Virus record (IMG/VR): IMGVR_UViG_3300046170_000391
DNA: 64,000 nucleotides
Origin: a virus
Strand: one strand, 5' to 3'
The notes beneath the pieces are model-generated. The model did not search any database, was not told the DNA's origin, and worked only from the letters and a program-made list of their open reading frames with translations. The position numbers and the translations under genes were made by a program. Below, one piece after another: positions 13,735 through 56,880 of the stretch (its first letter is position 1; every line of letters begins with the position of its first letter).

Positions 13735-13808
13735 TGGCAGAGGATCAAGGAATTGAACCCTGTCTTGCTGGGTTGGAGCCAGCTGTGCTACCGTAACACT
13801 TATCCTCT
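13735..13808 (-). tRNA. trnW: tRNA-Trp(CCA)
   Basis: Cloverleaf AGAGGAT/ATCCTCT, anticodon loop CTCCAAC, GGTTCAATT, encoded CCA. Confidence 0.93.
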
Positions 13809-13812
13809 ATTT

Positions 13813-13887
13813 TGGAGCGGGTAGACGGAATCGAACCGACATCCTCAGCTTGGAAGGCTGTGATAATTGCCATTATACTATACCCGC
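13813..13887 (-). tRNA. trnG: tRNA-Gly(TCC)
   Basis: GCGGGTA/TACCCGC acceptor, loop CTTCCAA, U73, CCA. Confidence 0.92.
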
Positions 13888-13888
13888 A

Positions 13889-13965
13889 TGGACGCCCTTG
13901 AGAGACTCGAACTCCCGACCTTTTGGTTCGTAGCCAAATGCTCTAATCCACTGAGCTAAAGAGCG
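13889..13965 (-). tRNA. trnR: tRNA-Arg(ACG)
   Basis: TAGCTCAGTGGATTAGAGC D-arm, loop CTACGAA, GTTCGAGTC, CCA. Confidence 0.92.
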
Positions 13966-27676: not shown

Positions 27677-29566
27677 CTATCTATATTGTAAATCAGTCAT
27701 CATACTGAATTTAGGGTCGTTTAAAAACCATCTTGCAAACGAATGATCTACCGTGGGTTTTGGCGGATAGAAGTTTGCTAAGTCTAGTATTTCTTCTTCG
27801 TTATAATCTTTAAAATCTGGTACGAAAGAAATCAAAGCGAGAAGCCTACGTTGAATGTCCATTTGCTGTTCAAGTGTCACAGCAGCTTCAAGCTCTTTAA
27901 CAGCTTCAATAGCTTTCATAGCTATTAGTAATTTTAGTTTTTCTCTCTTTGAATCTACGGGATCAACTTTAGGCATTGGTTTACCAGGAATATTCTCAAT
28001 ATACTCGGGTTTAGCATTCTCTAACTCAGCTAATTCTTTTTCAATATCATCTTCCTGATTTGCTCCACCCATCATAGCATCCACGGGACTTCCCTCTTCA
28101 TTAGATTCTGATTCTAACGCAGCAATCTCTGAGTCTATGTCGTCAATCATTTCAAGTTCACCAACTTCTTCATCAATATCATCTTCTACCATTTGAAAAC
28201 CATCATCAAGTTCTACGGTTTCTTGTTCTATTACTAATTCTTCTTGCAAAAAGTCATCAGTAGGAACACTATAAAACTCAGGTTCACCAGTTGTTATGTC
28301 AGTTTCCACAGTCAATACATCATCAATCAAGGGGTCTAAAACAGTAAAGTCACCATCATTACCTGATAAATCAACATATCCTGTGCAGGTGATATCATAT
28401 TGGGGATCTAATGAGCATTGTTGATCGAAGTATGCGGTATCGTATCCTTGACAGCCTGGATCAAACAAAGCATCCTCTTCACACATTGCTATGTAGTAAT
28501 CAGGGCAGCTTGGATCTGAGGTAGGATCATTAGTACACTGTTGATTGTATGATGCAGTGGCATAGCCTGAGCATCCTTGATCGTAAAGCGGATTTAAGTT
28601 ACACTGTTGAGTATAGTAAGCATTAGCATATCCCGGGCAAGCAGGGTCATGTAATGGATTAGCAGTACACTGTTGAGTTAAGTTAGCTGCGGCGTATCCA
28701 GGACAGGATGGGTCGTATAGAGGGTTTGCCGTGCATTGCTGATTAAACAATGCATTAGCATATCCTGAGCAAGACGGGTCGTGTAGAGCATTGATAGCGC
28801 AAATATCTTGACTGAATACGATATCACCAGTCATTCTTCTTACTGCAGGTCCAGCAAAGAAACTTCCTCCATTTTGATAACCTCCATCACCACCGTCTCC
28901 GCCAGTGATAGAAATATCAAAGCTTGCAATGTCTGTGCCATACCCAAGTTGACTGTTAAACCAACTTAAACCACTTTCAGTATACCACGTACCATCTGTA
29001 GCATTTGAGTCATAATTAAAAGTATCAGTTACAACAGCTTTACCATTACTGTCTTTTATAGTAAAACTAATCTCAAGGTGGTCATCACAACCCATCATCA
29101 TACGATTAGGTACTTGTCCATGACACATACCGTTTGAAGCAAATGCATCATCTGACTTTTTATACTCCCAAGAGTATGAGAATCCATCTAACTTGATTCC
29201 TGTTAATTGTTGAAGTAGTCCTGAAACAATTTGAGAGGTGTAGGTCCAATTGGCATCTCCGTTTATAGATTCGCCGTGTAATAGAATTTGGACGTTATTG
29301 CTGCCGCCATTATAGATACCAGTGCCTGCACCTTGGTTTCCGCCCCAAAAGTCTGATTGTTGGTGAGGACCGCCACCATCAAATATTTGCAGTTCAGTTT
29401 GTGCGTGAGTATTTGGATCTTCGGCACAAGCTGTACCAGTGACGAAATTAGTAGTTCCGTTAGTCGAACAATCACCTGTTGTTAAGGATTGAGCATTAGA
29501 GAAGGAGCAATAAGAGAGCGAGAGAAATGCCGCCACCAGCAATCGCTGCGTTACGTTTCTGAACAT
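27677..29566 (-). CDS. large exported protein with Cys-rich tandem repeats and acidic region
   Basis: Signal peptide; 7 x ~22-aa C..NPL.DP.C.GY repeats. Confidence 0.75.
   Translation of the reverse strand: MFRNVTQRLLVAAFLSLSYCSFSNAQSLTTGDCSTNGTTNFVTGTACAEDPNTHAQTELQIFDGGGPHQQSDFWGGNQGAGTGIYNGGSNNVQILLHGESINGDANWTYTSQIVSGLLQQLTGIKLDGFSYSWEYKKSDDAFASNGMCHGQVPNRMMMGCDDHLEISFTIKDSNGKAVVTDTFNYDSNATDGTWYTESGLSWFNSQLGYGTDIASFDISITGGDGGDGGYQNGGSFFAGPAVRRMTGDIVFSQDICAINALHDPSCSGYANALFNQQCTANPLYDPSCPGYAAANLTQQCTANPLHDPACPGYANAYYTQQCNLNPLYDQGCSGYATASYNQQCTNDPTSDPSCPDYYIAMCEEDALFDPGCQGYDTAYFDQQCSLDPQYDITCTGYVDLSGNDGDFTVLDPLIDDVLTVETDITTGEPEFYSVPTDDFLQEELVIEQETVELDDGFQMVEDDIDEEVGELEMIDDIDSEIAALESESNEEGSPVDAMMGGANQEDDIEKELAELENAKPEYIENIPGKPMPKVDPVDSKREKLKLLIAMKAIEAVKELEAAVTLEQQMDIQRRLLALISFVPDFKDYNEEEILDLANFYPPKPTVDHSFARWFLNDPKFSMMTDLQYR
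28376..28801 (-). repeat. seven degenerate ~66-bp coding repeats (CxxNPLYDPSCPGY...QQ)
   Basis: Visible in translation. Confidence 0.85.
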
Positions 29567-31441: not shown

Positions 31442-32548
31442 TTATAAAATTTGCTTTAATTCTGGAATTGCTGCAATAAAATTACGATTCCATAGAGAAT
31501 CTAATTGAGTTGTGTAATTTAAAAATTGTTGTTTTTTTGGAATGAAAATTTCTTGCTTTAAACAATCTGCTATTGGGTTAAAAAAGTTTACACTATCGTA
31601 GTAATCTAAAACACGTTTTCTATCTACTTTTTCAAGAACATAAACACTTAAAAAATCAGGATCAACTAGAAAGTTATAGTTTATACTTATCCCATAGCTT
31701 TCTGCATATTCAAATATTTTAGGTAGATTAAATATATTATATATTTGAATTGTAGTTGAAAAGTAATTAACTAAATCAAGGCAAGTTTCTAGATTGTGCT
31801 GAAATTTTTTTGCTGAAAAACCAGTTCTAATATATTCTCCAACAGCCCCCACACCGTCAAAACTAGCATAAACATCTACATCTTTAAATCTTTTCAAGTG
31901 ATCTATATGATCAACTCCTTTATAAGAGAGTACAGAAAGATTTGTTGTCATAACTAGATAAATTGACTCATATAAATTATTCTGTTCAATCAAATTTAAG
32001 AGATAAAGATATTCATCACAAATAAACGGTTCTCCACCCATCACAGTAAGAGTAATTTTTTGTTTTTTAGCTTGAGATATGATCCAGTCAATTTTATCAA
32101 ATTGGGGGTTAGAATGAGTTGAAGCCATACCTCTTATAGAACAAGCTTTAGGATCGTTCGCCCAAGCAGAACTATCTTCTGGATTACACATCATACATTT
32201 AAAGTTACACTTGTTTGATAGTGATATAGAGATTCTATTTAAATTTTTAGAAAAATTTTTATCTAACTGTCTAACACTATTTATTTTTGCGTCTTCTGCT
32301 TTCCAGCAAGCTGAACAGGAAGTAGGTTTACCTCCAATTAAAAACTCTTTTCGCAACGACTTAAGCTCCTCTGACTGCAAGTAGGAGTCAAAGGAGCCAT
32401 CGTAGAAGTTATAATTAACACAGCAAGGTCCAATAGTATTAAAATGGCTATATACTTCATTCCAAGGCTTAAAACAAAAATATTTAGGTAAGTCTTTTGG
32501 TAGTAATTTTTTCGTCACTAAATGTCTCTTCTTGTTTGATAAAGTCAT
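31442..32548 (-). CDS. radical SAM protein with SPASM/twitch domain
   Basis: FCFKPW..GPCC, CSACW, CNFKCMMC, MGGEP. Confidence 0.88.
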   Translation of the reverse strand: MTLSNKKRHLVTKKLLPKDLPKYFCFKPWNEVYSHFNTIGPCCVNYNFYDGSFDSYLQSEELKSLRKEFLIGGKPTSCSACWKAEDAKINSVRQLDKNFSKNLNRISISLSNKCNFKCMMCNPEDSSAWANDPKACSIRGMASTHSNPQFDKIDWIISQAKKQKITLTVMGGEPFICDEYLYLLNLIEQNNLYESIYLVMTTNLSVLSYKGVDHIDHLKRFKDVDVYASFDGVGAVGEYIRTGFSAKKFQHNLETCLDLVNYFSTTIQIYNIFNLPKIFEYAESYGISINYNFLVDPDFLSVYVLEKVDRKRVLDYYDSVNFFNPIADCLKQEIFIPKKQQFLNYTTQLDSLWNRNFIAAIPELKQIL

Positions 32549-33560
32549 AAAAACTTTGAACAGCTAGTTCTTTATGTTTGGCTTCAATATCAAAATCTGC
32601 ATATTCAAGCATCGGTACATGATTTGCCATTAGATGCTCATCCCAGTAAGTTTCTGAATGAGCATTAGGTTTCATCCAGTAATCTCGATTATCGGGGTGG
32701 AAGGATTGTGACTTGTGGAACAACGGGCGTACGCCTCTCCATGACTTGACAGCTTCCACGAAGTAGTCACTTGTGTGCGTGATATGATCCACGTCTCGAA
32801 TTTTCCGATTGACCGTTTTCTCGCCAATTTTAACTCTCTCAGTCTCAACCATTCGATGGCAGGCATAGTGGTGTGTGTCGAGGGTGCAGCGGATAGGGAT
32901 CCGTTGGGCAAGTTCAAGTGTGTGGTGGATGTCATATCCATTGGGTTTATCTTCATTTTCGACGGAGAGGCAACCCTGGGCGTAGTCTGAAAGGTAGGGG
33001 AAGTGTGTGGCAAAGCGTTTAATACCATCTTCGTGTTTTCCTCCATATAGTCCTTGTAAGTGGATGTTCATTGAAAATTCTTCAGCAGGTAAGCTCATCA
33101 ATGAACCGTATAGAGCGTGATACTCTAAGTCTTCAATAGATTTAGTTACTACGTCTGGTTTATTAGAAGCGAGAACTGTATACTGACCAGGATGCACAGA
33201 AAGACGAACAGAGTGTCGTTTTGCGGCCTCACCAGCTTGAGCCAGTATAGTTTCAATCTCCTCCCAAATTTCTTTATACCAGTCTTGAGTAAATTCAAGA
33301 GTGTAGCAAGGGAACATCTCAGAAGAGATCCGAAAGCTTCTAAGATTAAAAGGTTGAGTTGGGAAATAAGTAGTAAGAGCGTCGAGAAGTTTTTTACAGT
33401 TCTCAATAGCTTTTGTTTGAACTTTTTCTTTTCCGCCCTCTTTAAGAGCATAGGTCTTGGTAGTGGTTCCAAAGTTATACCTTTTAGCAAGTGTTTTATC
33501 ATGCCATTGGCAGCATTGCGAAATGCGCCAATCAGTTTGTTTTTGATTGAAATATTCCAT
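32484..33560 (-). CDS. uvsE: UV damage endonuclease
   Basis: FRISSEMFP, RLSVHPGQYTVLAS, VENED, LDTHH, AHS, IEAKHKE. Confidence 0.9.
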   Translation of the reverse strand: MEYFNQKQTDWRISQCCQWHDKTLAKRYNFGTTTKTYALKEGGKEKVQTKAIENCKKLLDALTTYFPTQPFNLRSFRISSEMFPCYTLEFTQDWYKEIWEEIETILAQAGEAAKRHSVRLSVHPGQYTVLASNKPDVVTKSIEDLEYHALYGSLMSLPAEEFSMNIHLQGLYGGKHEDGIKRFATHFPYLSDYAQGCLSVENEDKPNGYDIHHTLELAQRIPIRCTLDTHHYACHRMVETERVKIGEKTVNRKIRDVDHITHTSDYFVEAVKSWRGVRPLFHKSQSFHPDNRDYWMKPNAHSETYWDEHLMANHVPMLEYADFDIEAKHKELAVQSFYDFIKQEETFSDEKITTKRLT

Positions 33561-35078: not shown

Positions 35079-35540
35079 TTACTCATCGCACCAACCCTTT
35101 TTAGCCCCACCGTCATAAGGACGAGCTAAACCTTTATCAATTAAAATGTCAGAATAAAGAAGACCGTCTAGATACACATTTGAAAGTATACGTCCTCCAT
35201 ATTTATCCCATTTGAGATCTTTAAACTCAATAGTTTTCGCAGCGCGAAATAACTCGTTAGCAGTTTGTCTACCAATAAGTGCTAATTCTTTTTCTTTTTC
35301 ACATTTACCTTTTATTTCAGGAGTATCGATACCAAGTACCCTCACACTCATTTTACTTAACTTACCTGGAAGAACTGGGGCTGAAACGTAACAAGTATCA
35401 CCATCATAGCAAACATTACCTCTAAACTCTCTCATCTGCAAAAAATCAGAAGCAAAGGCTAAGTTTGCAAATAAGATTACGAATATAGCTAAAGAAAATC
35501 CAGCTAATAGTTCCAATCCAAATTTATCAATTTTCTTCAT
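35079..35540 (-). CDS. thermonuclease (SNase-like)
   Basis: YDGDT, VRVLGIDTPE, DKYGGRIL. Confidence 0.9.
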   Translation of the reverse strand: MKKIDKFGLELLAGFSLAIFVILFANLAFASDFLQMREFRGNVCYDGDTCYVSAPVLPGKLSKMSVRVLGIDTPEIKGKCEKEKELALIGRQTANELFRAAKTIEFKDLKWDKYGGRILSNVYLDGLLYSDILIDKGLARPYDGGAKKGWCDE

Positions 35541-36574: not shown

Positions 36575-37534
36575 TTAAAGTCCGTTAGGTACGATTACAT
36601 AATGAATAGATAAGACTACTCCAACAGAAGCAGCAAGTCCGACCATCATTTTAAGAAAGTCTTTTCCTATTAGTGGAAATACAACTTTGAACTTTTCCTT
36701 GCCTGTCATAGTTGCCATAGCAAGTTCACGTCCACATAGTAACCCTACAAATACCCAGGTGGTTGACATGGGTATATCATTTAGCTCTTTAAAAAAGAAT
36801 AAGATAACCCAATATACGGCATCAATAATTGTAGCGGAGCGAACATAACGAGTATTATGCTTCTCTAAAACAATATTTTGAATTTTACCTCCACCTTCTC
36901 TAAACATGAACCAAAGTCCACCTACAAAGATAATAGAAATTGCAAACATCATATCCGCAGGAATTTGTCTTGGTAAAAAGACTGCAATATTTGCGATATC
37001 ATGGGATAACCAAGTCCACCAAAGAAAACCTGTTGTTACCCATTGTCCGATTCTCCACCAACGCTTATGTTCTTCTTTAACTGGTTTAGATTCGTCTAAA
37101 ATTTTAGTTACACCAATCCATATAGCATAGGCAGCAACAGCAGCTACAGCATATCCCATCATGGATTTCATTAACATTTTTTCTAGTACAAAAGTAGAAG
37201 CAAAGGCTGAAAGTACTAAAAAAGATGTGCTAACAGGCACACCGATCCGCGTTAGTAGAAGTAGAAGTCCAGGGGCTAACGCGTGATACCACTGAATTTC
37301 TTGGAAGGGGATTTTATTCAGTCTTCCATAGGAGATGTCTCCTCCATATGTAAACCACCCGTACCATAATGCCCATAACAAAACAGACGAAGCAGCAAGC
37401 CACATCGTCCTCCAATGAAATCGTTCGTTGTTAGAAGCAATCCAAGTACCAAGAGTTTGTACTGAGTCATTTGCTATTACTGAATACGCAGCAAATAAAA
37501 AACCAACACCCATCCAAAGAGTTAAAAGTTCCAT
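36575..37534 (-). CDS. PiT-like inorganic phosphate permease
   Basis: Multi-TM; ANDS and HDIAN signature-like motifs, duplicated PVSTS/PMSTT; Pho box upstream. Confidence 0.65.
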   Translation of the reverse strand: MELLTLWMGVGFLFAAYSVIANDSVQTLGTWIASNNERFHWRTMWLAASSVLLWALWYGWFTYGGDISYGRLNKIPFQEIQWYHALAPGLLLLLTRIGVPVSTSFLVLSAFASTFVLEKMLMKSMMGYAVAAVAAYAIWIGVTKILDESKPVKEEHKRWWRIGQWVTTGFLWWTWLSHDIANIAVFLPRQIPADMMFAISIIFVGGLWFMFREGGGKIQNIVLEKHNTRYVRSATIIDAVYWVILFFFKELNDIPMSTTWVFVGLLCGRELAMATMTGKEKFKVVFPLIGKDFLKMMVGLAASVGVVLSIHYVIVPNGL

Positions 37535-37555
37535 TTTAATTTCTCCTTAGAAAAG

Positions 37556-37581
37556 TAATAAGAGGCTATAGCCTCTTATTA
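37556..37581. terminator. 26-bp perfect palindrome (terminator or 5' stabilising hairpin)
   Basis: TAATAAGAGGCTATAGCCTCTTATTA. Confidence 0.6.
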
Positions 37582-37583
37582 TT

Positions 37584-37617
37584 AGTATATTATAAAATTG
37601 TTACAGTTTTGTGAAAT
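37584..37617 (-). promoter_or_regulatory. Pho box promoter
   Basis: ATTTCACAAAACTGTAAC (consensus CTGTCAY-AWAW-CTGTMAY) exactly 10 nt before -10 TATACT. Confidence 0.7.
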
Positions 37618-37632
37618 TTTAAAAATTTAAAT

Positions 37633-37717
37633 TGGCTGTGGAGGATGGAGTCGAACCATCACGCCTTTCGGCACACGAGAAACAGTCGTGCGTGTCTACC
37701 AGTTTCACCACCCCACA
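37633..37717 (-). tRNA. atypical type II tRNA, anticodon GTT (Asn) on a Leu-like body
   Basis: TGTGGGG TG GTGAAACTGGTAGACAC G CACGA CTGTTTC TCGTG T GCCGAAAGGC GT GATGG TTCGACT CCATC CTCCACA G CCA. Confidence 0.88.
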
Positions 37718-37722
37718 ATAAA

Positions 37723-38553
37723 TTATGCTGCGAGCTGAAGCTGGGTATCAAGAGCCGCAATCATGCGAGTCATACCAATACCTCCGCCCACACGTGGGAA
37801 GAAGTCAAACTTTAAAAACTCTTCAAGTTCTGCCTCTACGCGTTCTTTACCAAACAGTTCAAACAGTAGGTTAGCGTAGGCTCCATCAGTAATTGTGTGG
37901 AAAGTGTTGCGCATCATATCAATATCGCATGAGCGTTCTGCTGAACCGATAGTTTCCATACCCCCAAGAATAACATCAATCTTTTTAGAGGTTAGTCCGT
38001 TTTCATAGCGGCTCATGTTCCAAAATGGTGAAGTAAACTCAGGGAAGTCCGTAATCATAGTAGTACTAAAATCATTAAACATTGCGATTTCATGCTCTGC
38101 CTCAAGTTCTCCGTCAACCTTATAATGCTTTTGCCATGCTTCGTAGGTCTTCTCAATCGGGCGATCAAAACCCAGATAATCTACAAGTTCATATTCCATC
38201 TTTTTAAGGTCTACAATATCACCTGGCATTTCAAATTCAAACATAGGGAAGATGATATCATGCCTACCAGGGATAGCATTAGGTTCTTGTCTGTACGAAG
38301 TTGAGACACAAAAAAAGCCCTTTTCATTGGGCTGAGAGAGTAACTCATGTTCTAACCACATCTGACCGGTTTGTGGAAGAGGCCAAACTTGACCAGCATA
38401 GTTATATGTAGCAACGTTGAAAGGATCTTCGCAAGCTGCAAGGATAGAAAGACGGTTCTGTGTGTGAACTTCTTTAAAACCTTTATCTAAAAAAAATGAC
38501 CTTAAAAGGCCAACGGTGTGAGTAAATTTTGTAGGGGAAATTAGTTGAGTCAT
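37723..38553 (-). CDS. class IIb aaRS catalytic-core-only protein (AsnRS/AspRS-like; AS-AR/EpmA-type architecture)
   Basis: Motif 1 RSFFLDKGFKEVHT, motif 2 YRQE...RH..FPMFEFE, motif 3 GGGIGMTR; no N-terminal OB fold; start revised to MTQLISP (AAGG SD). Confidence 0.85.
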   Translation of the reverse strand: MTQLISPTKFTHTVGLLRSFFLDKGFKEVHTQNRLSILAACEDPFNVATYNYAGQVWPLPQTGQMWLEHELLSQPNEKGFFCVSTSYRQEPNAIPGRHDIIFPMFEFEMPGDIVDLKKMEYELVDYLGFDRPIEKTYEAWQKHYKVDGELEAEHEIAMFNDFSTTMITDFPEFTSPFWNMSRYENGLTSKKIDVILGGMETIGSAERSCDIDMMRNTFHTITDGAYANLLFELFGKERVEAELEEFLKFDFFPRVGGGIGMTRMIAALDTQLQLAA

Positions 38554-38615: not shown

Positions 38616-38644
38616 ATTATATAAGAAGTATAGTAAGTATGCAA
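38616..38644 (-). promoter_or_regulatory. sigma70 promoter TTGCAT-N17-TATAAT for the aaRS-like/tRNA unit
   Basis: Exact spacing; 5'UTR hairpin GCGCAGG..TCTGCGC. Confidence 0.75.
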
Positions 38645-38665
38645 ACATAATTTAATTTTAAATAC

Positions 38666-39760
38666 TTACTCTGGTAGTTGATATAGTCTTATCACTTGTT
38701 TTGTAATGTACTGTATTTCATCGTCTGTTAAGTGTGGATTTATAGGAATTGAAAGAGCATGTTTTGCAAAATACTTAGAGTAAGGTAGTTCTTTTTTATC
38801 TTCAACCCATTTAAGTTCTGAAAATACATCGGGATAATGACATTCTGAATCTATGCCTACTTTTTGAAGTCTTTGATACATCTCAAACTTATCATCTACT
38901 TCAATAACATATTTATGAGTATTATTTTCAGAATACCTAGGAGAAGGACGAAATTTCACATCATGTTCATAAAACTGAGTATCATAATAGTCCCATATTT
39001 CAAGTCTTCTTTTTTGCCAAGCATCAACCCAGTTAGTAGCCGACCAAATCTGAGCAGCCTTATCTTCTTCTGGCACTGCGTTGATTCCTGACGACACCCA
39101 CTCAGATCTTCTACTATACTTGCCATGTTTACGTAAAGATAAAAGTTTAAAATATTTTGAAGTATCATTTAAGAGCACTGCTCCAAAAGTGCCTAAGCTA
39201 GGAATCGGTTTGTTTTCTGCAAAAGAAATACAAGCAATGTCACCTCTACTCATAGGTTCTTCACCTTTGTAACGACCAAGGTAGCTTTGTGAAGCATCAT
39301 TTATATGTATCAAACCATACTTATTACATATATAAGAGACTTCATCAATATCATAGGAATCTCCATATAACCCAGTACCTGTTATAGCTTTTGTTTTAGG
39401 AGTGATAAGTTTTTCAATTTTATCTGTATCAATTAAACCAAATCGATCTACATCACAAAAAATAGGAGTGGCGCCTGAATTAATGACATAGGTTAAAGAA
39501 GCCATGCAACTATAACCTGTAATAATTACTTCATCACCTGCCCCTATATCATTTACTAATAGTGCTAAATGTAATGCTTGAGAACCGCTTCTTACTAAAA
39601 GAGCGTGTTTTCTATCTGCAATTTTTTGTAAATAGTGTTCAACCTTATTAGTATAAAACCCATTAACAGTTTTTTCAGAACCAGAGATTACTTCAAGGCT
39701 ATTGAAATAGTCTTCTTTTATATCTTGAAAACGTCTTGCTAGGTTATATGTATGAATCAT
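38666..39760 (-). CDS. DegT/DnrJ/EryC1/StrS sugar aminotransferase
   Basis: SGSQALHLAL, GDEVI, NDASQS, SFAENK, SIPINP. Confidence 0.9.
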   Translation of the reverse strand: MIHTYNLARRFQDIKEDYFNSLEVISGSEKTVNGFYTNKVEHYLQKIADRKHALLVRSGSQALHLALLVNDIGAGDEVIITGYSCMASLTYVINSGATPIFCDVDRFGLIDTDKIEKLITPKTKAITGTGLYGDSYDIDEVSYICNKYGLIHINDASQSYLGRYKGEEPMSRGDIACISFAENKPIPSLGTFGAVLLNDTSKYFKLLSLRKHGKYSRRSEWVSSGINAVPEEDKAAQIWSATNWVDAWQKRRLEIWDYYDTQFYEHDVKFRPSPRYSENNTHKYVIEVDDKFEMYQRLQKVGIDSECHYPDVFSELKWVEDKKELPYSKYFAKHALSIPINPHLTDDEIQYITKQVIRLYQLPE

Positions 39761-40200
39761 GCTAGTGCGCGAATACGTTCTACCAATCGATCAGCACGTT
39801 TAGTAACTTGCTTGTACCAACGAGAATCAACCATCTCATCAGCTGCTGTACTCCATTCACGAGCGTCTACTCCGCGTTTCATACCCTTAAATTTAGACAA
39901 ACGAGGTCTACCCATATTAAACATCATATTTGCAATTACTCGTTGAGCTTCTTCCGGCAAATCATCAAAGTCTGGGTATAGGGTGTGGCAGTCTGACACG
40001 ACTGTTTTGATATCTTCGTTGAAGGCCTCAACGCATCTATCGTTACTGACGGCTGTACCAACTTCCCATCCGTGTTCAGGATCAGACTCCCTAACAAGAT
40101 GACCAATGCCAAAAGTAGGCAAACCGAGATGATCCAAATAGATCTTTTCCACGTTTCCTTCATCATATTCAATCTCTTCTCTTAATTTTTCAATATTCAT
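39757..40200 (-). CDS. T4-type lysozyme (GH24) endolysin
   Basis: DEG..YLDHLGLPTFGIGH, NMMFNMG, DSRWYKQVTKRA; start revised to MNIEKL. Confidence 0.9.
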   Translation of the reverse strand: MNIEKLREEIEYDEGNVEKIYLDHLGLPTFGIGHLVRESDPEHGWEVGTAVSNDRCVEAFNEDIKTVVSDCHTLYPDFDDLPEEAQRVIANMMFNMGRPRLSKFKGMKRGVDAREWSTAADEMVDSRWYKQVTKRADRLVERIRALA

Positions 40201-40324
40201 AAAATTTTTCCTTTTTAAATAAATTTCTGTACAAACCTGATTGATTGTAGTATTTAAATTTGTACACTTTTTAAAAATAAACAAGATTAATACACAACTC
40301 TACGTTTTACTTTTTTATTTTGTA

Positions 40325-41035
40325 TTAATCATAATTCTTTTTTACATGAGCATGATTTTTGTACCAATCTTCTCTATCTTTTTGCATTTCTGCACGTTTC
40401 TTCTTTGTTTTACGTAGCTCTTGTTTATCTAACCAAGTAACTTTAGAAGTCCAAGTATCTCTACGAACAGGTATAACCTGACATATAGGAGTGCCAGCAG
40501 GAATAATTACTTCCGGACCTCCTGCTTCTAGCATTGAATGGATAAAAGGTATATTTACTATATTATCAAAAGTATCAGTATCCACAAGCCCTGTAAGAGG
40601 AATAATAGGATTATCAAGCCTGTTTAGAGGAGGTAAAAATAGTAATGAGTAGTCTTTTGGGGTTTCAATTCGCCAAGGATTCATCCACTTGAGAACTGTA
40701 AATGATTCCATTGGAGATCCGGGTATCTGTCTCATAGGATGAGTCTCGATTGGGGGCCATTTAGAGATAAGTATTTTGTGCTTTTCATCAATGAAATCTA
40801 GCTTTAAAGACAAATCAGAAAGTTGTCTAATAACAATATCAACATGGTTGAGAAGCATATAACCAGCAGTCATTGCATCCAAAAACGGTACACATTTTTT
40901 AACTGTTTGGTCGCCATCATTCCAAGCTGGTGTTTTTTTAAACCAGTCTGGTACTGTGCGTTTAGTAGGAATTGGGGGAAGTACAATTTGATCAGGAAAA
41001 TCCTGCATTAAATGAAATTTGATTAGTTTTTTCAT
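40325..41035 (-). CDS. conserved phage protein (dUTPase-like fold, DUF6065-like)
   Basis: TVKKCVPFLDAMTAGY, PWRIETP, GLVDTD, IPAGTPICQVIP. Confidence 0.6.
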   Translation of the reverse strand: MKKLIKFHLMQDFPDQIVLPPIPTKRTVPDWFKKTPAWNDGDQTVKKCVPFLDAMTAGYMLLNHVDIVIRQLSDLSLKLDFIDEKHKILISKWPPIETHPMRQIPGSPMESFTVLKWMNPWRIETPKDYSLLFLPPLNRLDNPIIPLTGLVDTDTFDNIVNIPFIHSMLEAGGPEVIIPAGTPICQVIPVRRDTWTSKVTWLDKQELRKTKKKRAEMQKDREDWYKNHAHVKKNYD

Positions 41036-41193
41036 GCAGAAGCAACATTAGTTGGAGTAAAAAAAGTAGAAGGAACTTCCTCAGATGTAGTACCACAATC
41101 GCAAATATCACAACCACACGCACCGTTCTCGCAACAGTCCCACGCACAATGGCAGTTACATCCGCATTTCTTACAATTCTTCGTTTCGATCAT
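41032..41193 (-). CDS. 53-aa Cys-rich metallothionein-like peptide (not in ORF track)
   Basis: MIETKNCKKCGCNCHCAWDCCENGACGCDICDCG...; ATGA overlaps at both ends. Confidence 0.7.
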   Translation of the reverse strand: MIETKNCKKCGCNCHCAWDCCENGACGCDICDCGTTSEEVPSTFFTPTNVASA

Positions 41194-42278
41194 GCAGCTA
41201 AACTTTCGGGTAAATGAATTAGGGGATTAGAAGGATTAACACCTAAAAACTTGCCCCATTCTGCATAATAATGACGCATACCAACTTCGTCATGAATAGT
41301 CGAATTCTCATGTCTACCATGTAGTATGTTTCTTGATTCTGTTCCCTCACGCATCGTAGTACCCTGCCCAGCAACGCCAATAAGGTCTTCGTGTAGATTA
41401 CGACCAAAAGGACCCCAGATGGAGTTGTGATGTTTTATGCGTGTTTGTCTTTCTTCTGGTGTATCTTTTCTTAGTCCATATCCACGAAACTCAATAAGAA
41501 CTTTATTAGGACCAAGGGGTGTTACCGAGTCTGAACGATATGCGCTCCCACGGAGGTTAAAATTGAATCCTGGGAAGAGGTCAACCATGTACCACTGGTT
41601 GGGCGGCAGATTGGGAAAAGATAGTTCCCCGCGATCTTCAAATCCATCATACTCTTCATAGTTAACAGTAAAGCTGCTAACATTAACATGACCATTATCA
41701 AAAGGAATATTCTTTCTAGCGAAATACTCATCGTTAAATCCTGACACTCTGTTGAAATAATGCATAAAGTCATGATAGAACTCGCTGTTAGTATCATGCC
41801 ATAATTTATAATTAGTATCTATAATAGCTTTATGATAATGAAATACTTCCATTTCTTCAGTATCAATGGCATCTGCAATACAATCAAATGCACCTGCTGT
41901 CCATTCATCTACGCTTTGTGTAGGATTAGGATCAAGTGTTACCCAAACCATTCCACCATGTTTTACTTCACAGTGTAGTTGTGGTTCGACTGTTACGATT
42001 GGTGCAGCGACTGTACCAGATGGAGAATTAAATCCATGATTACAATATGCCTTAACACCGTCTTTGGTATTTACTGCAATCACATTCTGTCCAGCAATCT
42101 GTGTGGTTCTATAGTTGCCTTCATTGTACATCTCTGAGATATGACACATAGGAACCCAAACTTTACTAAAGATCATTTCTTGTTCTGCTAGATAAACATC
42201 GTGACTATTATAACAGTCACTACTAATATATTCAATTTTCGGTAATTTAGTCCAATTGTTATGGTTTCTTGGTGCCAT
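41190..42278 (-). CDS. ring-hydroxylating oxygenase alpha-subunit homolog with truncated Rieske domain
   Basis: EQEMIFSKVW, NYKLW..EFYHDFMH and EDL mononuclear Fe site; second CxxH absent; start revised to MAPRNH. Confidence 0.75.
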   Translation of the reverse strand: MAPRNHNNWTKLPKIEYISSDCYNSHDVYLAEQEMIFSKVWVPMCHISEMYNEGNYRTTQIAGQNVIAVNTKDGVKAYCNHGFNSPSGTVAAPIVTVEPQLHCEVKHGGMVWVTLDPNPTQSVDEWTAGAFDCIADAIDTEEMEVFHYHKAIIDTNYKLWHDTNSEFYHDFMHYFNRVSGFNDEYFARKNIPFDNGHVNVSSFTVNYEEYDGFEDRGELSFPNLPPNQWYMVDLFPGFNFNLRGSAYRSDSVTPLGPNKVLIEFRGYGLRKDTPEERQTRIKHHNSIWGPFGRNLHEDLIGVAGQGTTMREGTESRNILHGRHENSTIHDEVGMRHYYAEWGKFLGVNPSNPLIHLPESLAA

Positions 42279-42660
42279 CTTCGTTTCCTTCTTCCATTGC
42301 TGATTCATAATAAATTATGATTTCATTTTGTTGATCAATAAAACGTTTAATATCTGCTATGTTAAGTGCTAAATTTTCATAATCTTTTATAGCTAAAGCG
42401 ACATAAGCTAACTCACCATTTTCTTCTGTAAAATCTTTTACAAACTGGTCGTAGTTATCTTTATTAACCACATAAACTCTAGTATCAACTAGCTGGAGTG
42501 GTTTGGGCCTTGCTACTACTGGTACTGTTATTTTCTGAGTCTGAGTTACTACCTTGACTTCCTGTTCGGGGATCAGGCTGCAACCAGTTAGGAAGAGGCT
42601 TGCTATCACTACTGCCAGTGCTTTCCATGAAGTCTCTCCAAAGTTTAGCTGTTGCTCCAT
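42259..42660 (-). CDS. o-spanin (Rz1-like lipoprotein)
   Basis: Lipobox FLTGC; starts inside the i-spanin gene in another frame. Confidence 0.75.
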   Translation of the reverse strand: MEQQLNFGETSWKALAVVIASLFLTGCSLIPEQEVKVVTQTQKITVPVVARPKPLQLVDTRVYVVNKDNYDQFVKDFTEENGELAYVALAIKDYENLALNIADIKRFIDQQNEIIIYYESAMEEGNEDGTKKP

Positions 42661-44083: not shown

Positions 44084-44741
44084 CTCTCCTGTTCTTTAAC
44101 AAAGGTAAAAAGGGAACAGCACTTTTTTCAAAAATAATCGGATCATCGTTTTCAACAGTCATAATAATTGCTATATCTTGAATTCCTGTACCATACATTT
44201 CATTATGTGCAACAGCGTATGCACAGCCTTGAATATAGTAGTCCGTAATTTGCTTTTGATTCTTTTTCTTTTTTGATGTTTTAAAATCAATAATTGTAGG
44301 CTTGCCTTTCCATATACCTACCATGTCTGTTCTTCCTGCATAGCGGTATTTATTAGACCATAGTACTTGTTCTTGTCCCCAAACTTCTTCAACACCTGTT
44401 TCAGTAGCTCTAATAAGATTAGCGGTCATAGATCTAACATCCAACTGTAATGTCTTGATTTCTTCCCAGACGTCTTCTCCGTTGAAGTGTCTTTCAGCAA
44501 GCTCATGAACAAGCGTGCCTCTATCCGTAGCAAGTTTAGAAATGCGTGCAGCTTCTTCTTCACCAACTTTATCCTTCCATCTTTGTAACCAAGTTTGATC
44601 TGATGTCTTACCTAGTATAGTTGTAATAGATGGGTAGGACCCATCAGGGGTATGATAAGTTCTACCAGTAGGTAATGTGTCTGTGTCTACTTCAGTTAGA
44701 TACTTGAACTTCTCTTTTGTAATCTTCCACTGTGTTAACAA
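44046..44741 (-). CDS. PD-(D/E)XK exonuclease
   Basis: YPSITTIL, RGTLVH, E..AGRTD, IIDFKTS, Q..AYA. Confidence 0.88.
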   Translation of the reverse strand: MLTQWKITKEKFKYLTEVDTDTLPTGRTYHTPDGSYPSITTILGKTSDQTWLQRWKDKVGEEEAARISKLATDRGTLVHELAERHFNGEDVWEEIKTLQLDVRSMTANLIRATETGVEEVWGQEQVLWSNKYRYAGRTDMVGIWKGKPTIIDFKTSKKKKNQKQITDYYIQGCAYAVAHNEMYGTGIQDIAIIMTVENDDPIIFEKSAVPFLPLLKNRRDEFDKLQRNTST

Positions 44742-46059
44742 TAGGTTTTCCTTTTGCGTTTAAACTCGTGTTTATCAGTATGGGGTATCCATATTGTCTG
44801 GTTATCTCTAGTACTTTCCAAATATAAGCATTTTTATTGCGACTAACTAGTTGAAGACGAGCTGATTTATCATGAGTAGTAAAATTACCTCCAATAATAT
44901 CAGCAACAAATAGCATATCATGACTAGGCTGATAAATCTTAAACCACGTATCAGCTTCTTCTTCTTGACAAATAGGGGCATAAGGCCTCCAGGAATCTGT
45001 ATCACGTTTCTTAATTTTGTTTAATTTTTTAATATTATCATTTGTAGGAATACAGAGCAAGCTACGATTACCTAATGCACGAGGCCCAAACTCAGCCTTT
45101 CCCTGTATAATAGGAACAATTTCTCCTTTTAGTAATCTTTCCGCCGCCTCATCTGTAGTGACATCATTAGTATCGGTTATCCCTAAATAAGCACTCTCCC
45201 ATAAAGGTCTACAAATTAATGCCGCTGCTCCTAAAGCACACCCTGCATCTCCTGCTGCAGGTTGTATCGCTACTGAATCAAATCCTGAGTGTTTTTTTAT
45301 TTTAGTATTAGCGACACAGTTTAATGCTACTCCTCCTGCATATGCTAAGTTTTTCATACCAGTTTCTTGTTGGAGCCACGTAGCCAACGCAAGAAGAACA
45401 TTTTCAGTAACTCTTTGAACTGAAGCAGCAACATCCCAATCTAAAATACCGTAACCAACACCACGTTCAAGGTTATGCAATAGAGTGTAATCTCCATCCG
45501 CATTCCAATCTATTATTTTTTGATTTATCCAAGGTAACCACTTCGGCTCTCCATGAGCAGCTGCTGCCATTACTTGAGACTCATCACAAAGAGGTTTAAG
45601 TCCCAAGAAACGAGTAGCACTAGAGTAAAATAAACCAATAGAGTTTGGATACATAAACCTTTTAATCCATTCAATTTTGCCATTTTGATAAACTCCTAAA
45701 GATGTTGAATATTTACCTCCTACGGTATCTACCACCATAACGGCACACTCATACCAATCAGTCAAAAGGACAGAGCTCATAGCATGTGCTTCATGATGAT
45801 CTACTAAAACAGGTTGAGCTTTAGTAATCTTTTTAATTTCTGATTTAAAATCGTTGTAAGTAGACTCTTCATAAAAAGCAGCAAACTCAAAGTCTTCATA
45901 TACATCTTGCAACCATTTTACTGTATTATGAGGGAAGGATTTATCATATTTTTTACGAGTAAAACGTTCCTCATGAGAAGCACCAACTATTGAAGTATCT
46001 TTTATAAATGCTGCAGCGCTATCGTGGTGATAACAGCTGACTCCTAGTATGTTCATCAA
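44692..46059 (-). CDS. carbamoyltransferase (NodU/CmcH family)
   Basis: HDSAAA, EERFTR, HHEAHA, GGVALN, EFGPRALGNRS, NTSLN. Confidence 0.92.
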   Translation of the reverse strand: MMNILGVSCYHHDSAAAFIKDTSIVGASHEERFTRKKYDKSFPHNTVKWLQDVYEDFEFAAFYEESTYNDFKSEIKKITKAQPVLVDHHEAHAMSSVLLTDWYECAVMVVDTVGGKYSTSLGVYQNGKIEWIKRFMYPNSIGLFYSSATRFLGLKPLCDESQVMAAAAHGEPKWLPWINQKIIDWNADGDYTLLHNLERGVGYGILDWDVAASVQRVTENVLLALATWLQQETGMKNLAYAGGVALNCVANTKIKKHSGFDSVAIQPAAGDAGCALGAAALICRPLWESAYLGITDTNDVTTDEAAERLLKGEIVPIIQGKAEFGPRALGNRSLLCIPTNDNIKKLNKIKKRDTDSWRPYAPICQEEEADTWFKIYQPSHDMLFVADIIGGNFTTHDKSARLQLVSRNKNAYIWKVLEITRQYGYPILINTSLNAKGKPIVNTVEDYKREVQVSN

Positions 46060-51813: not shown

Positions 51814-52866
51814 GTGCCTTTATCAATCCCCAGTATTCCCCATAAATCAAGAATGAAGGCTCATAAACTTCAATACTTAAGAGCCATATCTGATTCTATG
51901 GATTATCCTTTTCAATCTGAAGATGGAAGAGATCCTTCTGCCTCACATCAAGAATTAACAGAAACTTGTGTTGAATATACTGACATACCTTACTGGCAGT
52001 TTACAAACTGTTGTACTGACTCACTACAAATCGCTTTTTCAATGTTGTGCAAAGTAGGAGATACAGTCATCGTACCTGCTTATGGTTGGAGAGCGGTAAC
52101 AAATGCTCCACAGTTTGTAGGTTTAAATGTTATATATTGTGATATTGATGAGACAGGTAACGTTAGTATTTCAGAGTTGCATCGTCTAATATATGAAAAT
52201 CAACCTGCTGCAATACTAATAATTCACAATTTCGGCACGGTAGTAGACGTATCAGAATTAACAGGTATTTGTGAAAAGTACGGTGTTAAAATTATTGAAG
52301 ACGCTGCCCAAGCATTTGTAATGAAAGAACCCTATGACTATAAAATTGGTTCTTGCGCTGACATAGTATGTTTTTCTTTTGATTTTACTAAATCTCCTGG
52401 TACCTTAGGTGCTGGAGGGGCAATAGCTACTTATAATCCAGATCATTTTACAAAAATTAAATCAATTTGTTCTCATATCACTAATGAGTTGGGAATTGGG
52501 ACAAAATCGTATTTAGATACTACTGCAGCAGCAGTGCTCAATTGTGATATAAAACTTATAGAGCAAATGCAGTATAGACAGCGTAGAGTCGAAGTTGCTA
52601 CTTACTATATAAACAAACTTCCTTATGAAACTCTGAGCGGAAAAAATTATATCTTTCATCGTTTTATAATTTTACCTGATAAAAGTGAAAAACAAGATCT
52701 AATTAACAAACTAAAGTCACAAAAAATTCTAGCTAAACCTGTATATAAACCTAATACAGATGCTTGTACTTATGCAAATAGATTCTACGAGAGTGCAATT
52801 GAGCTCCCTTGTCATCAGTTTATTGATGTAAATGACTTAAATTCAAGAATTGAAAAAATATTATGA
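51814..52866 (+). CDS. DegT-family sugar aminotransferase
   Basis: GDTVIVPAY, IIEDAAQA, FSFDFTK, ELPCH. Confidence 0.88.
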   Translation: MPLSIPSIPHKSRMKAHKLQYLRAISDSMDYPFQSEDGRDPSASHQELTETCVEYTDIPYWQFTNCCTDSLQIAFSMLCKVGDTVIVPAYGWRAVTNAPQFVGLNVIYCDIDETGNVSISELHRLIYENQPAAILIIHNFGTVVDVSELTGICEKYGVKIIEDAAQAFVMKEPYDYKIGSCADIVCFSFDFTKSPGTLGAGGAIATYNPDHFTKIKSICSHITNELGIGTKSYLDTTAAAVLNCDIKLIEQMQYRQRRVEVATYYINKLPYETLSGKNYIFHRFIILPDKSEKQDLINKLKSQKILAKPVYKPNTDACTYANRFYESAIELPCHQFIDVNDLNSRIEKIL

Positions 52867-54864: not shown

Positions 54865-55239
54865 ATGAAACTGCTACAAAAGATAAAGAAGTGGATAACG
54901 ATTGACCATTGTGTTGATCTTGTCGTTGATATATTGTTAATTGTATGGGAAGTTATCAGTAGTCCAATACTTATAGCTATGCGTCTTATAAGGCACTTTG
55001 TAGGTGAGTGGATAACAGATAAAATTAAAGCAGGAGTGCGTAAAATAGCACACTGGTTTGAGCATAAAAGAGAGTATAGATTAAAAAACGGATATGGAAT
55101 ATTTCGTACATATTGGTGGTTAATTATTTCAAGTCCTATAATTATATTTATCAGTATTTTTATTGTAGCTATACTGTCAGGATTACACGAAGGTTTAAAT
55201 ATAGCTTTCGAAGAAATTAGTGCTTCGTTTGAGGAGTAG
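54865..55239 (+). CDS. hypothetical membrane protein
   Basis: Two hydrophobic segments. Confidence 0.55.
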   Translation: MKLLQKIKKWITIDHCVDLVVDILLIVWEVISSPILIAMRLIRHFVGEWITDKIKAGVRKIAHWFEHKREYRLKNGYGIFRTYWWLIISSPIIIFISIFIVAILSGLHEGLNIAFEEISASFEE

Positions 55240-55245
55240 TATAAT

Positions 55246-55714
55246 AGACGGACTGGACTCGGGGGCAGTACCCGACGGCTCCACCATAAACACAGGAATA
55301 ACACATGAAAGAATATATGTTAATAATCAGCATGTGGGGAAGTGATGGAAGCACAGAGCATTACATTGGTCAGATGGTTTTACAACAACCAATGAGTAAA
55401 TCTCAGTGTGAGTGGATGATTGAGGATGAACAGTGGGGTGCAAGTTTTGATAATGAGTATTACTTCTTTGCTAGACACTGTATGCCGAAAGATTGTGCTG
55501 GAAAAGATTCCTGTGACTAAACACTATTGGTGTGTTTATGATGGGGCCGAAATAGGATCGACAGACGTAATAAAAACAATGCCGAGAAGCAGGTGCGCAA
55601 GCGACCTCAACCGCAAGAAAACAAACAATTGCAAATGATAATTTCGCAATCGAGGACTACCGCATAGCGGCATAGTCTCACGGGGTATGGCTCCACCTAG
55701 CAACAGAACGGGCC
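55246..55714 (+). ncRNA. ssrA: permuted two-piece tmRNA (acceptor piece ~55250-55286; coding piece 55543-~55714)
   Basis: T-arm TCGGG-GGCAGTA-CCCGA and CGGCTCC-A-CCA pair with GGGGCCG (G3.U70); GGATCGAC; tag ANDNFAIEDYRIAA* at 55631-55675; CACCTAGCAACAGAA 3' element. Confidence 0.92.
55305..55520 (+). CDS. 71-aa protein inside the tmRNA intervening segment
   Basis: AGGA SD, full ORF, resembles small Cys proteins at 12720 and 13532; flanked by TAAACAC direct repeats. Confidence 0.75.
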   Translation: MKEYMLIISMWGSDGSTEHYIGQMVLQQPMSKSQCEWMIEDEQWGASFDNEYYFFARHCMPKDCAGKDSCD

Positions 55715-55737
55715 TTTACAACTCTTATGAGGATTAA

Positions 55738-56880
55738 ATGTTTAATTTTAATACAACTCCACGTTTAGTAATCGGCGCAAATAGATTACAGTTCTTAGGC
55801 ACACTTCTTTCCGACCTTGGAATCAAAAACCCTTTAATAGTGACAGGTCCTAATCTTGCAAAATCTAAAATCATAACTGAGACACAAAAATGGTCTTGGA
55901 CTGATAATGTATTCTGTGATTTAGTACAGGATCCAACGACTCAGAATGTGTTAGACTGTGTTGAATATGGAATAAGTAAAGACGTAGATGGAGTTATTGG
56001 TATCGGGGGTGGATCATCTCTTGATGTAGCAAAAGTTGCTTCTGTGTTATTAAAACAGGAAACATCTTTAGAAAACATTTGGGGTGTAGACAATGTTTAT
56101 AGTTCAAGACTACCTTTAATTCTTATACCTACCACCTCGGGGTCAGGATCAGAAGTTACCCCAGTTTCAATTATTACAACAGGTGAGACAACAAAAATGG
56201 GAATTGTTTCTCACAGAATCATTCCAGATGCAGCAATTCTTGACCCTCTTCTTACAGTTTCTTGTAACCCTCAACTAACTGCATATAGCGCAATAGATGC
56301 GATGGTTCATGCTATCGAATCATACACTTCTATAAATCCCAATAACAATCCTTACTCAAAAATGCTTGCACTTGAAGCTTGTCGCTGGTTAGGTAAATCA
56401 ACAAAAACTGCCATCTTAGAGCCAAGTAATATCGAAGCAAGAGCTAATGTACAATATGGATCTATGTTGGCCGGGCAGGCATTTGGTAATTCGCCAGTAG
56501 CAGCAGTTCATGCATTAGCCTACCCACTAGGTGGGTACTTTAAACTGCCACATGGTTTAACAAATACTTTGGTTCTTCCTGGTGTTTTAGAGTATAATCA
56601 AGAAAATACAGACTATTCAACTCTTGCTACTGCTTTATTTCCTCATGATGAAGGAGAAATATACTACTATAAAGGTGATGTTGTTGAAGTAATGTGCAGA
56701 AATATCAAAGAATTAGCAGAGTTAGCAGGAATCGAAACTCGAATGAGTGATTATGGAATCAGTGCAGAGCATATTCCAATGTTAGCAGAAGAGGCAATGA
56801 AACAATCTAGGCTCTTGGTAAATAATCCGAGAGAAATTACAGAAGAAGTTGCAAAAGAAATTTACTGGGAAGTTCTATAA
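55738..56880 (+). CDS. iron-containing alcohol dehydrogenase
   Basis: GIGGGSSLDVAK, PTTSGSGSE, DAMVHAIE, HALAY, HG. Confidence 0.93.
   Translation: MFNFNTTPRLVIGANRLQFLGTLLSDLGIKNPLIVTGPNLAKSKIITETQKWSWTDNVFCDLVQDPTTQNVLDCVEYGISKDVDGVIGIGGGSSLDVAKVASVLLKQETSLENIWGVDNVYSSRLPLILIPTTSGSGSEVTPVSIITTGETTKMGIVSHRIIPDAAILDPLLTVSCNPQLTAYSAIDAMVHAIESYTSINPNNNPYSKMLALEACRWLGKSTKTAILEPSNIEARANVQYGSMLAGQAFGNSPVAAVHALAYPLGGYFKLPHGLTNTLVLPGVLEYNQENTDYSTLATALFPHDEGEIYYYKGDVVEVMCRNIKELAELAGIETRMSDYGISAEHIPMLAEEAMKQSRLLVNNPREITEEVAKEIYWEVL

Follow-up and report, generated by a model that had tools for sequence, protein, structure and literature searches.

An asparaginyl-tRNA synthetase (AsnRS)-like gene and a transfer RNA (tRNA) gene lie 5 nt apart on the minus strand of a viral DNA (IMG/VR record IMGVR_UViG_3300046170_000391; the window is the whole 64,000-nucleotide stretch analyzed here). 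The tRNA has the body of a tRNA-Leu and the anticodon of a tRNA-Asn, and the question raised by this locus is what such a molecule is for. We find that it is a chimera, in which a phage tRNA-Leu scaffold has been re-tooled with Asn-type identity nucleotides. Because it is strictly linked to the enzyme gene in both directions, carries a pyrimidine at position 37 and partners an enzyme family with ties to pyrimidine synthesis, we tentatively propose, from sequence comparisons, that it may be a dedicated aminoacyl (asparaginyl) carrier for the adjoining enzyme rather than a routine decoder of AAY codons. Our literature searches turned up no account of the pair, of the chimeric tRNA or of an AsnRS-like enzyme in pyrimidine synthesis.

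A tRNA-Leu scaffold with Asn-type identity nucleotides

The tRNA (37633-37717, minus strand) is a type II molecule of 85 nt with anticodon GUU and an encoded CCA end, and is called tRNA-Asn(GUU) by ARAGORN. It matches RF00005 in a local Rfam search (43.8 bits, E = 2.7e-8) and was missed by a whole-window Rfam run at the gathering threshold. A covariance model (R1) built from an alignment of 38 distinct homologues (A1) scores it at 96.7 bits. Minimum-free-energy folding gives a cloverleaf that bears an extra arm. Its acceptor stem extends from U1-A72 to G7-C66 and contains a single G-U pair, the D stem has 3 bp (D region GGUGAAACUGGUAGACAC), and the anticodon stem CACGA/UCGUG closes a 7-nt loop, C32 U33 G34 U35 U36 U37 C38 (37685-37679), with G34-U36 at 37683-37681 and an abnormal U37 at 37680. 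Sequence and fold define a variable-arm hairpin, GCC-GAAA-GGC (37663-37672, minus strand). A15 and U48 are both present, the T arm reads GAUGG-UUCGACU-CCAUC, and the discriminator is G73. Every anatomical element listed in the original prediction (Leu-type D arm, A15/U48, variable arm, CU-GUU-UC loop, U1-A72, G73 and CCA) is present in the sequence.

The molecule has the hallmarks of a tRNA of family RF00005, namely a cloverleaf backed by covariation, U8, A14, G18 G19 and the T-loop UUCGA. Its tRNA-Asn features are GUU, G73 and U1-A72, found together in 38/38 distinct sequences; the type I body and A37 of tRNA-Asn are missing. The type II body, the Leu-type D arm and A15-U48 are those of tRNA-Leu, and A73 and a Leu anticodon are absent, G73 and GUU being invariant. 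None of the distinguishing features of tRNA-Ser (Ser anticodon, conserved long arm, acceptor identity pairs) is found. Few features of tRNAs are as constant as position 37 and the division into type I and type II bodies. A natural and abundant family (more than 590 IMG/VR loci; for the enzyme, more than 8,000 clusters of the protein collection) here breaks both constants, by uniting a type II body with an Asn anticodon and pyrimidine-37.

The origin of the two halves can be traced by alignment. At positions 7-27 and in the T arm the molecule is almost the same as the tRNA-Leu(UAG) of related phages, and R1 scores phage tRNA-Leu(UAG) at 70 bits, compared with 54 for tRNA-Tyr and 47 for tRNA-Ser. 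The acceptor end and the anticodon resemble the ordinary 74-nt tRNA-Asn of the huge phage LR756508. The nucleotides it has gained are G34 U35 U36 and G73, on which class IIb Asp/Asn systems rely, and U1-A72, on which bacterial GatCAB relies.

All 20 stem pairs of A1 stay paired, with 760 of 760 pair cells standard, and compensatory (two-sided) changes are seen at 14 of them. The observed covariation score was reached by none of 500 shuffles, and sliding the registers of A1 lowers pairing to 39-62%. U1-A72, G73 and U33-G34-U35-U36 show no variation in the 38 homologues; U8, A14, A15, G18 G19, U48 and the T loop are likewise invariant. Conservation and covariation thus rule out decay or sequencing error: the view that the molecule is not decayed is borne out by 38 distinct homologues with paired stems, and the one-off event that had been considered as a way to overturn the original prediction is excluded by conservation over hundreds of loci. 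An 8- or 9-nt anticodon loop or an intron is also ruled out, as the 5-bp stem and the 7-nt loop are kept in all members. The tRNA of a divergent relative (locus L098) keeps the Leu body, GUU, U37 and G73 and has A1-U72 instead of U1-A72.

Among family members called by ARAGORN, position 37 is U in 35, C in 4 and A in 2, and hence a pyrimidine in 39/41. As a control, we inspected the genuine other tRNAs of the same loci, where a pyrimidine occurs at this position in 0/114, all being purine; three seeming exceptions are mis-parsed family members. Position 32 is C or U and position 38 is C or A, and the loop variants comprise UUGUUUC, CUGUUUA, CUGUUCA, CUGUUUC and CUGUUAA. The variable arm ranges from 13 to >30 nt, from a minimal hairpin upward, with little sequence conservation. 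Conservation of U37, C38 and the long arm in viral metagenomes had been proposed as a check: the pyrimidine at position 37 is typical of the family, C38 alternates with A, and the arm varies in length.

Forms of 100-109 nt with a much longer variable arm were recovered by R1 alone. ARAGORN misses or mis-parses such members, overlooking ∼25 of 80 family loci, and annotation pipelines will therefore mislabel or omit the family. The 100-103-nt members mis-parsed in this way (at loci L023, L024, L029, L044, L048, L059, L063 and others) were reported as tRNA-Glu(ctc), tRNA-Asp(atc), tRNA-Ile(aat) or as having a 4-base anticodon.

These patterns of variation bear on the idea of a mistranslating tRNA, which would be charged by seryl-tRNA synthetase (recognizing the long arm and G73) or by leucyl-tRNA synthetase (LeuRS) and would insert Ser or Leu at AAY codons. 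A type II body with G73 is superficially tRNA-Ser-like, and the body is Leu-derived. However, A73 is the main LeuRS determinant and is removed by the change to G73; pair 2-71 varies (C-G 21, G-C 15, U-A 2), the arm grows from a 3-bp stem to >30 nt, and no Ser-type identity set is conserved, whereas the Asn/Asp elements are invariant. Proteome-wide replacement of Asn by Ser would also be costly, and has no tie to the enzyme. We regard such a function as highly improbable and do not follow the earlier suggestion that the tRNA inserts Ser.

The AsnRS-like enzyme and its linkage to the tRNA

The gene preceding the tRNA (37723-38553, minus strand) encodes an AsnRS-like class IIb catalytic core of ∼276 amino acids. 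The open reading frame (ORF) as listed reaches 38616 from a TTG codon; homologues start near the ATG at 38553, which is the likely start because they are 270-276 amino acids long. The protein matches Pfam PF00152 (class II Asp/Lys/Asn synthetase core, E = 1.6e-14), and its AF2 model (pLDDT 95.9, pTM 0.92) returns AsnRS for all top 10 Foldseek hits (P. horikoshii, T. thermophilus, Brugia, human; E ∼1e-17). A family profile run against the PDB finds AsnRS (9e-15) ahead of aspartyl-tRNA synthetase (AspRS) and lysyl-tRNA synthetase, with weaker matches to archaeal asparagine synthetase A (3p8t, 3.4e-5) and EpmA/GenX (3.5e-5). Motif 2 (SYRxE...GRH) and motif 3 (GGGIGxTR) are intact. The pocket sequence PQTGQMxLE aligns to QSSQLYLE of AsnRS and not to QSPQLYKQ of AspRS, and the stretch ETIGSAER retains the Asp/Asn-type arginine. 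With its class IIb fold, motifs 2 and 3 and an Asn-type pocket, the enzyme is a predicted AsnRS-type adenylating core.

It is, at the same time, a catalytic core only, as the N-terminal OB-fold that forms the anticodon-binding domain is absent. The enzyme scores far below the cut-offs of the NCBIfam models for asnS, aspS and asparagine synthetase A (22 bits versus 342.6 for TIGR00457, asnS; 20 bits versus 389 for NF005055, asparagine synthetase A). We rule out membership in AsnA/AS-AR from the latter score and the 3p8t match, which is only 3.4e-5, and an EpmA/PoxA/GenX-type identity from the much weaker profile match and the presence of the Asp/Asn-type arginine.

Scanning IMG/VR with the enzyme yielded at least 596 confirmed loci. 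In the best 80 of these, together with the Prochlorococcus phages P-SSM2, P-SSM5 and P-SSM7 and the window, the tRNA is found behind the enzyme in 84/84 loci at a spacing of 4-190 nt (two of them are cut by the contig end). In most of the best 80 loci the long tRNA(GUU) is called just downstream by ARAGORN, and in the rest by R1. The converse scan started from a tRNA-only pattern: 77 of the 80 loci listed have the enzyme upstream at a distance of ≤1.4 kb, and in the remaining 3 the tRNA sits at a locus edge, hence 77/77 informative loci. Within this sample the tRNA is never seen apart from the enzyme. The remaining phage tRNAs of these loci are of the ordinary kind, with no fixed placement.

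In P-SSM7, P-SSM2 and P-SSM5, the enzyme homologues are annotated as “tRNA ligase” and are followed by “tRNA-Asn” genes of 85-88 nt; these names have been given to the genes of P-SSM2 and P-SSM7, and P-SSM2 has been listed with one tRNA (PMC3037559). This single tRNA is the chimeric one. The P-SSM2 record (L002, AY939844.2) places its tRNA-Asn, PSSM2_199, at 164094-164179, inside a coding sequence; the true position is ∼162082-162169, directly after the “tRNA ligase”. A DegT aminotransferase gene upstream of the enzyme in the window (38666-39760) was considered as a further part of the module and ruled out, since the upstream genes of P-SSM7 and P-SSM2 differ.

The linkage also speaks to a defensive role, in which the altered loop would let the tRNA evade or sequester an anticodon nuclease that a host or a rival directs at tRNA-Asn. 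Phage tRNAs are known whose changed loops help them avoid defences against tRNAs, and the change at positions 37/38 is loop-specific, with G34-U36 kept. Nuclease resistance, however, offers no reason for an obligatory enzyme partner or for the switch to a type II scaffold, and we know of no tRNA-Asn-specific defence in these hosts. We consider a decoy or nuclease-resistant tRNA very unlikely.

A terminator-like hairpin of 11 bp (37556-37581, minus strand) lies 52 nt past the 3' end of the tRNA and is probably the end of an enzyme-tRNA transcription unit, as judged from a pattern match in a consensus scan that saw 5 terminator-like sites where 0.7 were expected. The same type of scan gave a weak sigma-70-like promoter match, TTTGCA-18-TATAAT, upstream of the enzyme gene (38616-38645, minus strand); promoter-like matches show no excess over the shuffled expectation. 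A weak match to the freshwater-2 RNA (37532-37595, minus strand; 24.6 bits, E = 0.088, gathering score 49.9) covers the terminator hairpin together with the next gene's ribosome-binding site, and probably reflects chance.

Ties to pyrimidine synthesis and the role of the tRNA

An exhaustive search for the enzyme returned 684 representative clusters; two of the representatives, P0162 and P0230, had no match among viral contigs. Two fusions connect it to pyrimidine enzymes: P0123 joins dihydroorotate dehydrogenase to an enzyme domain (56% identical to the window enzyme), and P0140 joins the enzyme to orotidine monophosphate decarboxylase. Homologues at 51-64% identity reside on large cellular contigs of Bacteroidota, Chlamydiota, Patescibacteria, DPANN archaea, Dependentiae and Alphaproteobacteria, where the commonest neighbour families are PyrD (11 loci) and a PyrE-PyrF fusion (10 loci). 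We detected no tRNA near these cellular homologues; it is present only on mis-binned phage contigs.

We compared the pyrimidine genes of 5 enzyme-bearing genomes and 14 control genomes, using family cut-offs. PyrB is over the cut-off in 0/5 enzyme genomes and 14/14 controls, PyrC in 0/5 and 11/14, CarB in 3/5 and 14/14, and PyrD in 5/5 and 14/14, respectively. One PyrD match, in an Absconditabacterales genome (G008, C1:543609-544487), has TGA in frame 15 times, in keeping with the genetic code 25 of this lineage. P-SSM7, P-SSM2 and P-SSM5 all encode PyrE over the cut-off, and PyrE of this type occurs in only 13 of 50,697 phage records: all six enzyme-bearing isolate records, some fragmentary single-virus contigs and one huge phage. 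Five larger IMG/VR contigs, 17-38% complete, are too partial to inform on PyrE. The enzyme family appears to be embedded in pyrimidine synthesis, and relatives of the window enzyme seem to replace its first steps.

A tree of 119 enzymes places 25 tRNA-linked ones in a single clade (SH-aLRT 91), and L098 together with P0174 makes up a second tRNA-linked branch. No partner tRNA was found in the huge phages LR756501 and LR756508 or in the ∼45-kb phages G001-G003, in which the best R1 matches are ordinary tRNA-Leu.

The likely host affects how the tRNA might be charged. The window contains a two-piece (permuted) transfer-messenger RNA (tmRNA; 55171-55717, plus strand; alpha_tmRNA 110.7 bits, tmRNA_permuted 95 bits), which is not called by ARAGORN. 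Its tag, read from the alignment, is ANDNFAIEDYRIAA and of the alphaproteobacterial type, so the host may be an alphaproteobacterium and not a cyanobacterium; in the related loci L026 and L062, tmRNAs with ANDN... tags adjoin the module. AsnRS is over the cut-off in 4/151 sampled Alphaproteobacteria (one unpublished genome in the sample, G047, has no over-cut-off match and leaves the count unaffected). With AsnRS so rare in this group, such a host would make Asn-tRNA via a non-discriminating AspRS (ND-AspRS) and GatCAB.

In hosts that depend on AspRS and GatCAB, enzyme and tRNA could form a private translation pair. The mini-AsnRS would charge the tRNA with Asn by reading U1-A72 and G73 at the acceptor end, perhaps along with the long arm, instead of the anticodon; the tRNA would decode AAY, and the phage would gain a direct route to Asn-tRNA. 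An AsnRS-type fold and pocket with intact motifs 2 and 3, the strict linkage, the invariant GUU, U33, T loop and CCA, and the fact that Alphaproteobacteria almost always lack AsnRS are all consistent with this arrangement. Class II synthetases approach the tRNA from the variable-arm side, and given this geometry the arm could be a handle. Yet the arm is hypervariable in both length and sequence, the anticodon is invariant although the enzyme has no reader for it, and the enzymes are strongly acidic and have gained no basic residues. Relatives that are 51-62% identical do without the tRNA, in pyrimidine operons and fusions. The decoders of ANN codons, to our knowledge, universally keep A37, which nearly all members of this family have lost. 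A private pair, the main rival of a carrier role, seems doubtful to us; should it exist, it would be a natural orthogonal pair of interest for genetic-code engineering.

We prefer, with reservations, the reading of the tRNA as an aminoacyl carrier for the enzyme. The enzyme would bind asparagine and feed the pyrimidine pathway, and the simplest chemistry would combine Asn with CO2 or bicarbonate to give dihydroorotate via activation of the α-carboxyl group, as Asn-AMP or Asn-tRNA. In these marine phages, the tRNA would deliver or hold the activated asparagine. Charging could proceed by the host ND-AspRS followed by GatCAB, or by a host AsnRS, in each case via the anticodon, G73 and U1-A72; alternatively, it could take place in the active site of the phage enzyme itself. 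The Asn-CCA end would then be used in the enzyme pocket. GUU, G73 and U1-A72 are indeed elements read by host AspRS/AsnRS and GatCAB, and the phage enzyme is devoid of an anticodon reader. The loss of purine-37 argues against selection for ribosomal decoding. If a carrier role is correct, it would define a new use of tRNA outside translation, and ocean phages would re-plumb the nucleotide supply of their hosts. Among the three roles that the original prediction offered, a non-ribosomal aminoacyl donor acting with the neighbouring enzyme appears to fit best; the anatomy is borne out, the Ser role is unlikely, and the mostly tRNA-less, pyrimidine-linked nature of the enzyme family had not been seen.

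A more specific scheme can be drawn for a non-translational tRNA(GUU). It would be loaded by the host ND-AspRS and amidated by GatCAB, pyrimidine-37 would keep it off the ribosome, and the enzyme would convert Asn-tRNA and CO2 to dihydroorotate, bypassing carbamoyl-phosphate synthetase, PyrB and PyrC. Loading by host AspRS and amidation by GatCAB would explain why GUU, G73 and U1-A72 are invariant. All three elements serve in transamidation (PMC1635274, PMC2330236), and U1-A72 has been shown experimentally to be a positive determinant for bacterial GatCAB (PMC1635274). In its full detail we hold this scheme to be unlikely; were it true, pyrimidine synthesis would have an entry point that depends on a tRNA, and the pyrimidine ring would be made in a way not known before.

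Several observations weigh against a carrier role. The enzyme family occurs without the tRNA in cells, in huge phages and in ∼45-kb phages, and the tRNA-linked clade is nested among tRNA-less, pyr-linked clades; the tRNA is thus an accessory gained within marine phages, outside the core chemistry. No pyrD, pyrE, pyrF or any other pyr gene was found within the 64-kb window. Enzymes with a linked tRNA are strongly acidic (median pI 4.66, net charge −20), and we found neither clade-specific basic residues nor a raised pI in them. In a few family members the loop is CUGUUAA, the fully canonical Asn form. For GatCAB, an additional nucleotide in the D loop, U20A, is a negative determinant (PMC1635274), and the enlarged D loop of the Leu type could, by analogy, be an anti-determinant as well. 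Finally, the invariant anticodon and U33, the canonical T loop and the CCA end are also needed by a decoding tRNA.

A further possibility is a host-charged tRNA-Asn that does decode and whose linkage to the enzyme is indirect. It could compensate an asparagine drain, be co-expressed with the enzyme, or serve as a processing or stabilising element at the mRNA 3' end, with no direct chemistry between enzyme and tRNA. The Asn identity set for host AsnRS/ND-AspRS (G34 U35 U36, G73) and GatCAB (U1-A72) is invariant, the tRNA sits just past the stop codon and ahead of the terminator-like hairpin, and the enzyme elsewhere clearly needs no tRNA. This explanation does not account for a tRNA that is never found apart from the enzyme, for the use of a re-tooled Leu scaffold over an ordinary tRNA-Asn, or for pyrimidine-37; nor do the other phage tRNAs of these loci, which are of the usual kind, show any fixed placement. 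We judge it to be quite unlikely. P-SSM2 or P-SSM7 on Prochlorococcus NATL1A provides a culturable system for the enzyme-tRNA pair.

Genomic surroundings and known systems

Elsewhere in the window, a cluster of three tRNAs (13735-13965, minus strand; Trp-CCA, Gly-UCC, Arg-ACG) is ordinary, with purine-37 in all three. Sugar/lipopolysaccharide (LPS)-type genes surround the enzyme-tRNA pair (31442-32548, 38666-39760, 44692-46059, 51814-52866, 55738-56880 and 60218-61231). They comprise a radical SAM protein, two DegT/EryC1 aminotransferases, a NodU/CmcH-type carbamoyltransferase, an Fe-alcohol dehydrogenase and an NAD epimerase/dehydratase, and the set resembles the “LPS clusters” of large cyanophages. 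Further genes at 32484-33560, 35079-35540, 39757-40284, 40325-41035 and 41190-42308 encode a UvdE UV-endonuclease, an SNase-like nuclease, a phage lysozyme, a DUF6065 protein and a homologue of the Rieske-type ring-hydroxylase alpha-subunit. An ORF of 629 amino acids (27677-29566, minus strand) has no Pfam family and no tblastn match among the 50,697 phage records.

Compared with bacterial tRNA-Asn (type I, GUU, t6A37), the tRNA family described here shares GUU, U33, G73 and U1-A72. It differs in its type II body, 3-bp D stem, enlarged D loop and A15-U48, and also in a variable arm of 13 to >30 nt, U/C37 in place of A37 and linkage to one enzyme gene. The 74-nt tRNA-Asn of the huge phage has the same acceptor features, and its loop is CUGUUAA. 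With bacterial and phage tRNA-Leu (type II), the family has positions 7-27 and the T arm in common; it departs from them in G73 for A73, U1-A72, the Asn anticodon and a different anticodon stem.

On the protein side, the class IIb domain of AsnRS (PDB 1x54, 9sh8, 2xgt, 8h53) is the best match in both fold and profile, and shares motifs 2 and 3 and the pocket motifs Q..Q.xLE and E..G.A.R with the phage enzyme. Unlike AsnRS, the latter has no N-terminal anticodon-binding domain, the identity is ∼20%, and its relatives are fused or adjacent to pyrimidine enzymes. Archaeal AS-AR (PDB 3p8t)/AsnA sets a precedent for an AsnRS-derived core that lacks the anticodon domain and has turned into a tRNA-independent metabolic enzyme. 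AS-AR differs from the enzyme described here in having neither a tRNA partner nor a connection with pyrimidine genes.

That a tRNA can serve as a carrier or cofactor is known from tRNA-dependent metabolite synthesis, as in the Asn transamidosome (ND-AspRS/GatCAB/tRNA-Asn) and in the use of Glu-tRNA in haem synthesis. Those systems employ an ordinary translational tRNA, whereas the marine phages have a separate, non-canonical tRNA for one enzyme, and the suspected product would be a pyrimidine precursor.

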